Sequence record: KJ909655.1
DNA length: 61,137 nucleotides
Source of the DNA: Escherichia Stx1-converting recombinant phage HUN/2013
Strand: one strand, 5' to 3'
Position 1 is the stretch's first letter; the number at the start of each line of letters is the position of its first letter. The position numbers are program-made. Below, piece after piece: positions 39,001 to 42,000 of this stretch.

Positions 39001-42000
39001 GGATTTAAAGTGAAGGAGTGAGCATGAGCGACCTATCATTAACCCAGCCAAAGCTAAAAGAATGTCCGTTTTGCGGCGGTAATGCTCGTCTGTGGGTTGA
39101 GGCCGGAATAAATATTGATGTGTGGGGCTATGCAGAATGTGACCTCTGTGAAGCCAGGGGGGCATGGGCACCATCAGTTGCTGCGGCGGCTGAAAAATGG
39201 AACCGGAGAGCAGGAGATGAAGCAAACCTTTCTGCTTCGCAACGAAGCAATCAGAAATAACGCCATAGACGCCATTCTCTCACTACCCATCGACGACAAG
39301 TCACCCCACGAAGTCCACGTTAAAGAACCCAAGCGCAGCAAAGCGCAGAATGACCGTATGTGGCCGATGCTGAACGATGTTTCGCGTCAGGTGCTATGGC
39401 ATGGTCAACGGCTGGCGCCGGAAGACTGGAAAGACCTGTTCACTGCCCTGTGGCTTAAGACCAAAAAACTGGAGCAACGAAGTGTGCCTGGTATCGACGG
39501 TGGCGTTGTCATGCTTGGCGTGCGTACCAGCAAAATGCGGAAGGCCAGCATGACTGAGCTTATCGAAATCATGTTCTGGTTCGGCTCAGAGCGCAACGTG
39601 CGGTGGAGTGATGACTCCCGGCGAGAGTATGAATGGTCACAACGAAAAGGTAGGGCTGCATGACTATCAAATCAAATACGCCAGCACACGACAAGGACTG
39701 CTGGCAAACGCCGCTTTGGCTTTTTGATGCACTGGATATTGAGTTTGGATTCTGGCTGGATTCGGCAGCGAGCGACAAAAATGCTCTGTGCGCTCACTGG
39801 CTAACTGAGGCCGACGACGCGCTCAATTCTGAGTGGGTAAGCCACGGTGCAATCTGGAATAACCCACCGTACAGCAATATCAGGCCGTGGGTGGAAAAAG
39901 CCGCTGAGCAGTGCATACAACAGCGACAGACGGTAGTTATGCTTGTGCCAGAGGATATGTCAGTCGGATGGTTCAGCAAGGCTCTGGAGAGTGTTGACGA
40001 AGTTCGCATCATCACTGATGGACGGATTAATTTTATCGAACCATCGACAGGGCTGGAGAAGAAGGGAAACAGCAAAGGCTCCATGCTGCTGATTTGGCGA
40101 CCGTTCATCAGTCCTCGACGAATGTTTACTACTGTATCCAAAGCGGCATTGATGGCGATCGGGCAGGGCGTCAGGAGGGCGGCATGAGGCGACAGCGACG
40201 AAGTATCACCGACATCATCTGCGAAAACTGCAAATACCTTCCAACGAAACGCTCCAGAAATAAACGCAAGCCAATCCCAAAAGAATCTGACGTAAAAACC
40301 TTCAATTACACGGCTCACCTGTGGGATATCCGGTGGCTAAGACATCGTGCGAGGAAAACAAGGTGATTGACGCGATGATTTATTCGGGGCTATATTCCTC
40401 ACGCGCCAGCAAAATCTGGCGTCGGGATTGGCGTCCTGGATAGAGACCGCGACAGATACACGCCGCGAGCGTGTTTTTTATTGTCGTATGCACGCGCACA
40501 TCTGAATTATGGTGGGCTGTGTGGGGGCGGAGAGATCCGCGCCGGTCGGTTTCCCGGTTACGCCAACCCTGCACAGTTCACCACCAGACGATTGGCGTCG
40601 TCGGTGGTGAGTTATTAAGAAACCACCAGAGGGCGTCATTATGACAACTCAAATTTCTGTTGAAACTCTCTCCCCGATCACCCATAACCAGATTCCTGTT
40701 ATTACCACCGAACTTTTGGCGCAGCTTTACGGCACTGAGCCGGTGCGTATTCGCCAGAATCATCATGAGAACAAAGTACGCTTCGTTGAAGGGAAACACT
40801 TTTTCAAAGTTGTTGGTAATGACCTTAAAGAATTGCGGGTAGCTTTAAACTACTCACAAAATTTGCGGGTTACTTTAAGTAACTCACAAAATTTGCAACC
40901 ATCTTTAAGAGGGTTACAAATTTCCCCGAAAGCCCGCTCCCTCATACTCTGGACAGAACGAGGCGCAGCCCGTCACGCAAAAATGCTCGAAACTGATCAG
41001 GCGTGGGATGTGTTCGAAAAACTGGAAGACTGCTATTTCAGCCAGTGCGAGAAAAATACTGGCAAACAAGAGAAGAAGCTCAACGGGCTTTCCGCAAAAG
41101 AAACAGACAGCCTTGTATGGCTGTGGGATTATGCCAACCGCTCACAGGCATTGTTCCGTGAGTTGTATCCCGCATTAAAACTGATTCAGTCTGGCTATTC
41201 CGGCATATGCCACGACTACGGCTATGAGTTCTCGTATATCATCGGGAGGGCGAGGGGCGTTTTAATTAATCACACGCGGGATATAGATATTTATGAGCCT
41301 GACGGGCCGACGAACCTTCTGGCATGGGAAAGGCTTAAGAACAAAGAGTTGCCGCCTTCACTGCATCGCTACTGACAATTGACAACTTAACAAACCCAGC
41401 TTCGGCTGGGTTTTTTATTGCTGAATTTTCAATGTGAGAGGACATGACAATGAATGAGCTGATAAATAGCAATGCCATCAAAATGACAAGCATTGAAATC
41501 GCTGAGTTGGTGGGAAGCCGTCATGACAAGGTGAAACAATCCATTGAACGACTGGCGGTTCGAGGTGTGATCCGAAATCCCCCAATGGTGGTTTTCGAAA
41601 AAATCAATAACTTAGGATTACTTCGTGGCGTAGAGGCTTACGTTTTTGAGGGCGAACAAGGTAAGCGCGACAGCATTATTGTCGTTGCCCAGTTGTCGCC
41701 GGAATTCACCGCTCGCCTTGTTGACCGCTGGCGAGAACTCGAAGGGGCAACCGCGAAAATACCACAAACCTTTTCTGAGGCATTGCGCCTTGCGGCCGAC
41801 CTTGAAGACCAGAAGGCTGAACTGGAGAAACAGCTTGCTCTCGCAGCACCTAAAGTTGAGTTTGCCGATCGCGTTGGCGAGGCCAGCGGAATTTTGATTG
41901 GAAACTTTGCAAAGGTTGTTGGTATTGGTCCAAACAAACTGTTTGCGTGGATGCGCGATCACAAAATCCTTATTGCTTCAGGCTCCCGGCGCAATGTGCC

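Follow-up and report, generated by a model that had tools for sequence, protein, structure and literature searches.

The nin region of Escherichia Stx1-converting recombinant phage HUN/2013 (Stx, Shiga toxin; sequence record KJ909655.1) contains a Lar-like zinc-ribbon gene, ninB and a gene for a Dam-type N6-adenine methyltransferase side by side, and this locus raises the question of whether the three genes work as a system. A preliminary description of the 61,137-nucleotide (nt) stretch, here called the window, read them, together with Gam from the early-left operon, as a layered anti-restriction toolkit that protects incoming DNA. Our analysis upheld the Lar and Dam family calls and the presence of Gam, but not a coherent toolkit shielding incoming DNA: the genes probably make up an ordinary mosaic nin-region block, whose adjacency does not come from a co-evolved system.

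Positions 38798-40366 of the plus strand hold five closely packed open reading frames (ORFs), encoding a DUF7301 protein, a Lar-family protein, NinB/Orf, Dam and NinE. The first of them (38798..39013, +) encodes a small protein that matched PF23975 with 91.5 bits and phrog_1785, and is named DUF7301 family protein by the Prokaryotic Genome Annotation Pipeline (PGAP). The second (39024..39260, +) encodes a Lar-family zinc-ribbon protein of 78 amino acids (aa), recognized by PF14354, i.e., Lar_restr_allev (E=1.8e-10; 41.3 bits, cut-off 28.6), by TIGR03655 (62.3 bits, cut-off 39.6) and by phrog_599 (E=9e-39). The NinB/Orf recombination mediator, with 148 aa (39217..39663, +), gave a full-length match above the cut-off to PF05772 (165 bits, profile positions 1-131 of 131) and a match to phrog_72. 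The phage Dam-family N6-adenine DNA methyltransferase, with 175 aa (39660..40187, +), scored 218 bits with PF05869 and 266 bits with the equivalog model TIGR01712, whose cut-off is 97; its catalytic motif IV, NPPY, lies at residues 68-71 and the motif LDSAA at residue 33. Finally, NinE, with 60 aa (40184..40366, +; PF05322, 148 bits), closes the coupled block. The family E-values of these genes are far beyond chance. The Lar-like, NinB and Dam ORFs are therefore real, adjacent and all on the plus strand, each above a curated family cut-off, and the Lar assignment, which had relied on a sequence pattern, now goes beyond the motif, since the Pfam search returned a family match.

The initiation codon of the Lar gene is the ATG at 39024 in AP000422, in the PGAP annotation and in the 78-aa protein cluster. 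The extent first proposed for this ORF, 39018..39260, was right at its stop; its GTG start falls inside the Shine-Dalgarno sequence AAGGAG (39013-39018), and the ATG at 39024 is used instead. The 3' end of the Lar ORF and the start of ninB share 44 nt, and inspection of the junction sequences showed that ninB/dam and dam/ninE are joined by ATGA overlaps. The overlapping or coupled starts noticed earlier are thus present. As a sign of joint function, they did not hold: ATGA-overlapping starts are general to every lambdoid nin region (PMC8022706), and therefore the coupling carries no specific functional information. The same source and the RefSeq product name make NinB/Orf a recombination mediator, arguing against its place among anti-restriction genes. 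Gam, an inhibitor of RecBCD, was found in the early-left operon as described (30520..30936, -; PF06064, 212 bits), and RefSeq labels the identical region gam-like host nuclease inhibitor.

Relatives of the block were informative about how tightly its genes are held together. Salmonella P22-like prophages carry a 50%-identical Lar allele (P0006) in the same slot upstream of ninB, with the same 44-nt overlap. In 7 of the 8 Salmonella Lar-NinB loci, ninB is directly followed by ninE, whereas in the other one (L014) Dam is inserted ATGA-to-ATGA between them, indicating that Dam is an optional cassette. While the core of the Lar protein differs in about half of its positions between the Stx-phage and Salmonella alleles, the C-terminal tail of 16 residues, AGDEANLSASQRSNQK, is identical in both (window 39213-39260; loci L008-L015, 5215-5258), because most of it is specified by the stretch in which Lar overlaps the ninB start and by the ninB ribosome-binding site. 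Alleles about 50% identical that share an identical tail point to a mosaic joint within the Lar gene itself. In the phage collection, the Lar allele of the window was present in 118 records, all of them Stx phages, and Dam at no less than 95% identity in 243; the Dam family as a whole reached 1907 phage records, including T1-like, Klebsiella, Vibrio and Lactococcus phages. Since the allele counts and the loci of Dam and Lar differ, these genes assort independently; the gene identities and the junctions were likewise directly observed.

We then surveyed the neighbors of Lar in 80 diverse viral loci, whose Lar proteins were 27-57% identical, by scanning the flanking ORFs. Among 150 ORFs at positions +/-1, there were 3 methyltransferases, 2 NinB, 1 YqaJ and 7 further Lar domains, and among 150 at positions +/-2 there were 3 of the N6_N4_Mtase family. 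A search with the Dam of the window added two near-duplicate viral Lar loci that the crude gene caller had missed, with a Dam-family gene 132 nt from Lar. When all ORFs of 120 aa or more within 2.5 kb were screened for motifs, 9 loci had an ORF bearing [DNS]PP[YFW] and 1 had C5-methylase motifs, where about 8 hits were expected by chance among 715 ORFs and some of the hits were antisense artefacts. Overall, a methyltransferase lay within 2.5 kb of Lar in about 7-9 of the 80 loci (roughly 10%). In these loci, there is no conserved partnership of Lar with a methyltransferase, and the member genes of the proposed toolkit did not stay together and adjacent across diverged relatives.

The integrity of the Lar gene also varies. 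A G6 homopolymer lies within the Lar ORF at 39157..39162 (+), as seen in the alignment with Min27 and EDL933-Stx, and a G7 tract takes its place in 933W/EDL933 (several independent assemblies), Min27, SJ7 and others. Of 491 E. coli records, 22 (about 4% of carriers) matched the G7 form best. The Lar translation of this form ends after about 56 residues, with loss of the WNRR helix, and PGAP flags the Lar gene of strain SJ7 as frameshifted. As the gene is frameshifted in viable Stx phages such as 933W, it is dispensable for viable Stx phages. A phase-variation switch at this tract was judged unlikely, because it has only 6-7 nt and G7 was the best match in so few records. No G5 form was seen; such a tract would join Lar residues 1-45 to NinB in a single reading frame.

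The block is already known from other phages. Positions 38700-40500 of the window are 100% identical in DNA to VT2-Sakai, Stx2 converting phage II and many O157 Stx phages. VT2-Sakai (Sp5) and Stx2 phage II carry H0103/ORF C64 (Lar-like), H0104/C65 (NinB), dam/C66 (M.EcoVT2Dam) and ninE in the same order and with the same overlaps, and there are no differences in the nin region; elsewhere, stx2AB is found in those phages and stx1AB in the window. RefSeq record NC_004914 labels the products "Lar-like restriction alleviation protein", "NinB/Orf homologous recombination mediator", "DNA methyltransferase" and "NinE family protein"; the methylase gene was already named dam in AP000422 (VT2-Sakai); PGAP annotates the five-gene block likewise in E. 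coli chromosomes; and a 71-nt probe from the Lar ORF matched 486 of 5426 complete E. coli genomes. The methylase DNA of the window is identical to VT2-Sakai dam, i.e., M.EcoVT2Dam; PMC6602927, which cites Radlinska & Bujnicki 2001, describes this orphan enzyme as "known to target 5'-GATC-3'". The block was thus annotated before in RefSeq and by PGAP, and its methylase has been cloned and has a REBASE-style name, so that the locus is partly characterized. The toxin genes stx1A/stx1B, at 43893-45128 of the window, are 100% identical to those of Stx1 converting phage NC_004913 and VT1-Sakai, unlike the early and nin regions, which are identical to those of the Stx2 phages VT2-Sakai and Stx2 II. 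The window is a Stx1-converting phage with a shared early region.

The Lar-like protein has zinc-ribbon cysteines C14, C17, C39 and C42 (CPFCG...CxxC), followed by a helix with W59-N60-R61-R62, and in a 43-sequence family alignment the cysteine and WNRR columns were invariant or nearly so. Its AlphaFold model, with an overall predicted local distance difference test (pLDDT) score of 81.5 and values above 90 across roughly residues 11-60, shows a zinc ribbon, strands at residues 21-27 and 33-39 and a C-terminal helix from residue 52. Foldseek comparison of this model with the PDB gave no neighbor at E<=0.001, the best being marginal fragments of double-stranded RNA-binding domains and zinc ribbons, and the fold therefore offers no lead on mechanism. 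Sequence searches of the PDB found nothing significant for Dam or for the Lar-like protein, for which the best hit was the eukaryotic eL43 zinc ribbon (E about 0.01). A word-indexed protein search retrieved only six close Lar relatives, and an exhaustive profile search was needed to reveal the family, with 10,537 representative clusters (50% identity, E<=1e-3). The Lar domain often occurs in 2-7 tandem copies per protein, and some of these proteins have more than 1000 aa; the wide spread and the tandem copies suggest a generic binding module, not a single dedicated activity.

The family takes its name from EcoKI alleviation with enhanced modification, an activity reported only for Rac Lar (King & Murray 1995, cited in PMC2993543), and Lar and Ral raise the methyltransferase activity of type I systems (PMC2993543; PMC12707154). 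Rac Lar of E. coli K-12, the same gene as RalR, belongs with the window protein to one Pfam/TIGRFAM family and shares the CPFCG...CxxC ribbon and the WN(K/R)R helix, with 36% identity over 58 aa. The two differ in several respects: the window gene lies in the pR nin region, and Rac lar in the early-left operon next to recT; the window protein fails the RalR equivalog model; the RalA small RNA (sRNA) is absent; and the 16-residue C-terminal tail of the window protein is largely encoded by the ninB overlap. Lambda Ral has been proposed to act in an analogous way, by alleviation of type IA restriction and enhancement of modification (PMC12707154; PMC2993543); however, Ral and Lar are separately named proteins, likened here by their activity, and the ral gene of lambda closely follows N in the pL operon. 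No Ral-like gene was recognized in the early-left operon of the window, and the corresponding slot, just downstream of N (31791-32042, -), is occupied by an unrelated ORF of 83 aa that belongs to phrog_2471 and has no Pfam match. In the literature, we found no report of restriction-alleviating activity for the Lar homologues of Stx phages. The window contains 7 EcoKI sites, close to the approximately 7.5 expected, and is therefore a substrate for type I restriction.

Regarding Dam, the enzyme resembles the T1/HP1 Dam family (PF05869, TIGR01712), whose members are small orphan N6-adenine methyltransferases with NPPY, and the VT2-Sakai record describes dam as similar to HP1 Orf13 and T1 M.T1. 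It differs from that family in its setting, as a cassette flanked by ninB and ninE in a temperate lambdoid phage, and in having a host with a Dam of its own. The proposal that it is a non-specific adenine methyltransferase (Drozdz et al., PMC3299994) was dropped, as that paper does not mention the VT2, T1 or HP1 Dam. An ORF of 174 aa antisense to dam and ninE (39794-40318, -), a hypothetical protein in RefSeq NC_004914 (ORF c67), probably represents a shadow ORF arising from the dam frame rather than a gene. In the window, there were 164 GATC sites, against 246.9 ± 13.3 in dinucleotide-preserving shuffles, a number lower than in 100 out of 100 shuffles. The GATC-free stretch over the cluster (37846-40157) was not considered notable by itself, because, given the site density, the window would contain a gap this large with a probability of about 0.3. 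The longest GATC-free stretch, at 45293-48820 (3.5 kb), runs from just past stx1B across the next large ORF, and the chance of a gap as long as this one somewhere in the window, at the observed site density, is about 0.01.

Taken as a whole, the window is best read as a Shiga-toxin-converting lambdoid phage and the block as the left half of its nin region, made of small, non-essential, translationally coupled delayed-early genes that would be read from pR after N-mediated antitermination, each one a mosaic cassette that could be exchanged independently. Upstream of the nin cluster, a consensus scan found a tR2-like, terminator-like hairpin with a T-run (38342..38365, +), with an 8-bp stem of which 6 pairs are G-C, followed by TTTTATTTGG. 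Terminator-like sites were no commoner than in shuffled sequence, and the hairpin, which by its position would separate the replication genes from the nin genes, is weak evidence. If the block is delayed-early and downstream of this hairpin, as lambda biology suggests, its products would come too late to protect the entering genome. This bears on the alternative that Lar, NinB and Dam, with Gam, are a co-adapted layered toolkit whose clustering and coupling reflect joint protection of incoming DNA. The real Lar-family and Dam-family memberships speak for it, as do the overlaps that couple the genes, the presence of Gam, which blocks the RecBCD enzyme that degrades restricted DNA, the joint occurrence of Lar, NinB and Dam in Salmonella locus L014, and the proximity of Lar and a Dam-family gene in the two near-duplicate viral loci. 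Nevertheless, NinB mediates recombination, every nin region shows ATGA coupling, Dam is missing from 7 of the 8 Salmonella Lar-NinB loci, the Lar allele and near-identical Dam differ in their phage records (118 vs. 243), a methyltransferase lies within 2.5 kb of Lar in only about 10% of the 80 diverse loci, and viable phages such as 933W carry a frameshifted Lar gene. Together with the delayed-early timing, this makes a co-adapted toolkit unlikely, and the mosaic nin-region block remains our preferred explanation. Two of the three genes in question plausibly bear on the methylation state of DNA.

What each of these genes does is a separate matter. By homology to Rac Lar, the Lar-like protein may push type IA enzymes such as EcoKI towards modification, and this would aid replicating or co-infecting unmodified DNA and the modification of progeny, not the first genome to enter. 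By this analogy, we give a restriction-alleviation function for the Stx-phage homologue an even chance. The protein could, on the other hand, act like RalR, as a small non-specific DNase toxin whose partner in a type I toxin-antitoxin pair, an antisense or trans-acting sRNA, restrains it, and not as a restriction alleviator. RalR has been described as a non-specific DNase toxin with the sRNA antitoxin RalA, and reported to cleave both methylated and unmethylated DNA (PMC4041452); the name of the NCBIfam equivalog accords with a RalR toxin, and the CPFCG...CxxC...WN(K/R)R core is common to both proteins. However, the protein failed the RalR equivalog model (27.6 bits, cut-off 113), and a search for RalA (Rfam RF02694) found nothing in the window at gathering level and nothing at E<=1 in 38300-40700, while the K-12 positive control was detected with 225 bits. 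With the control working and RalA absent, the RalR/RalA toxin-antitoxin architecture does not apply. Moreover, the Lar gene is within a lytic delayed-early operon and not beside recET/xis as in Rac, and a toxin gene with no antitoxin would not be expected to stay intact in hundreds of genomes. We thus consider a toxin very unlikely. Slightly less so, and still improbable, is that the Lar-family ribbon upstream of ninB is functionally tied to recombination, DNA-end processing or evasion of non-type-I defence, and does not modify EcoKI in the manner of Ral. Hints in this direction are the 44-nt overlap with ninB, preserved in E. coli and Salmonella phages even though their alleles are only 50% identical; the position of Rac lar, which directly adjoins recT/recE; the reported DNase activity of RalR (PMC4041452); and, for defence of another kind, the Lar-family gene of phage Bas63, which mattered on hosts lacking intact type I systems (PMC11482910). 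Against a link to recombination, such genes were rare around Lar, with 2 NinB, 1 YqaJ and 1 ERF among 300 neighboring ORFs.

As for Dam, on the mosaic-block explanation the phage enzyme would most likely top up GATC methylation where replication outpaces the host Dam, and the consequences could include MboI/DpnII-type resistance in Dam-negative hosts, escape from MutH cutting and epigenetic effects on lysogeny. The natural E. coli host is Dam+, and GATC methylation therefore gives little added protection there; protection from GATC-cutting, methylation-sensitive enzymes matters mainly in hosts other than E. coli, and topping up GATC methylation is at least as plausible a role for Dam as such protection. 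Another proposal is that Dam keeps fast-replicating DNA fully GATC-methylated, against MutH nicking and the interference of mismatch repair with recombination, or acts epigenetically on lysogeny or expression, and does not mainly serve anti-restriction. This concerns the role of Dam alone and is compatible with the mosaic block. In E. coli, which has its own Dam, protection from GATC-cutting enzymes is largely redundant. Virion DNA of P22 and lambda is under-methylated by Dam, since replication outruns the enzyme (PMC8022706), and the strong GATC depletion seen in the window has been linked in enterobacteriophages to MutH acting at unmethylated sites (Deschavanne & Radman 1991, cited by PMC5014478). 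Stable 933W lysogeny needs the host Dam, and the Dam gene of Phi24B is expressed in lysogen cultures (PMC3342100); in addition, the neighbors of the Dam gene are recombination functions, with NinB here and NinG further along. Yet virulent phages, such as T1-like, Klebsiella and Vibrio siphophages, widely encode the same Dam family, which in them is usually explained by anti-restriction, and a phage Dam that did away with the MutH problem entirely would not be expected to leave the GATC depletion in place. We hold this proposal tentatively, at somewhat less than even likelihood.

Some observations weigh against the explanation that we prefer. We infer the function of the Lar-like protein by homology, at 36% identity to Rac Lar/RalR, and its 27.6 bits are below the cut-off of 113 of the RalR equivalog model NF007260. 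Moreover, RalR, the sole family member studied biochemically, was reported to be a non-specific DNase toxin and not a methylation enhancer (PMC4041452). Any benefit of Lar would be conditional, since 933W and about 4% of carrier records have the gene only as a pseudogene. The window is depleted of GATC despite a phage-encoded Dam. Lastly, the neighbor survey used a crude ORF caller and a family table of the top 25 families, and had no baseline rate near random early genes.

Other RNA elements were detected in the window. A P1/P7-type antisense RNA module is found at 40367-40588, directly after ninE and upstream of an antirepressor gene (40641-41375); it comprises the c4-a1b1 targets (40390-40442), isrK (40403-40479) and the C4 antisense RNA (40505-40588), with a promoter-like site TTGACG-18-TATATT at 40367-40396 and a terminator-like hairpin at 40458-40474, suggesting that an antisense RNA controls the expression of ant. 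Above the Rfam gathering scores, there were also the sok antitoxin RNA (19932-20106, -; 113 bits), sRNA-Xcc1 (22728-22816, -; 69 bits), the lambda cIII thermoregulator (31122-31180, -; 88 bits) and, just after stx1B, the STnc100 sRNA (45207-45416, +; 177 bits). ARAGORN found no tRNA genes anywhere in the window.

Beyond its correct annotation, the block has little significance. A restriction-alleviating activity of the Lar homologue of Stx phages could bear on the spread of these phages among E. coli lineages with differing type I systems.

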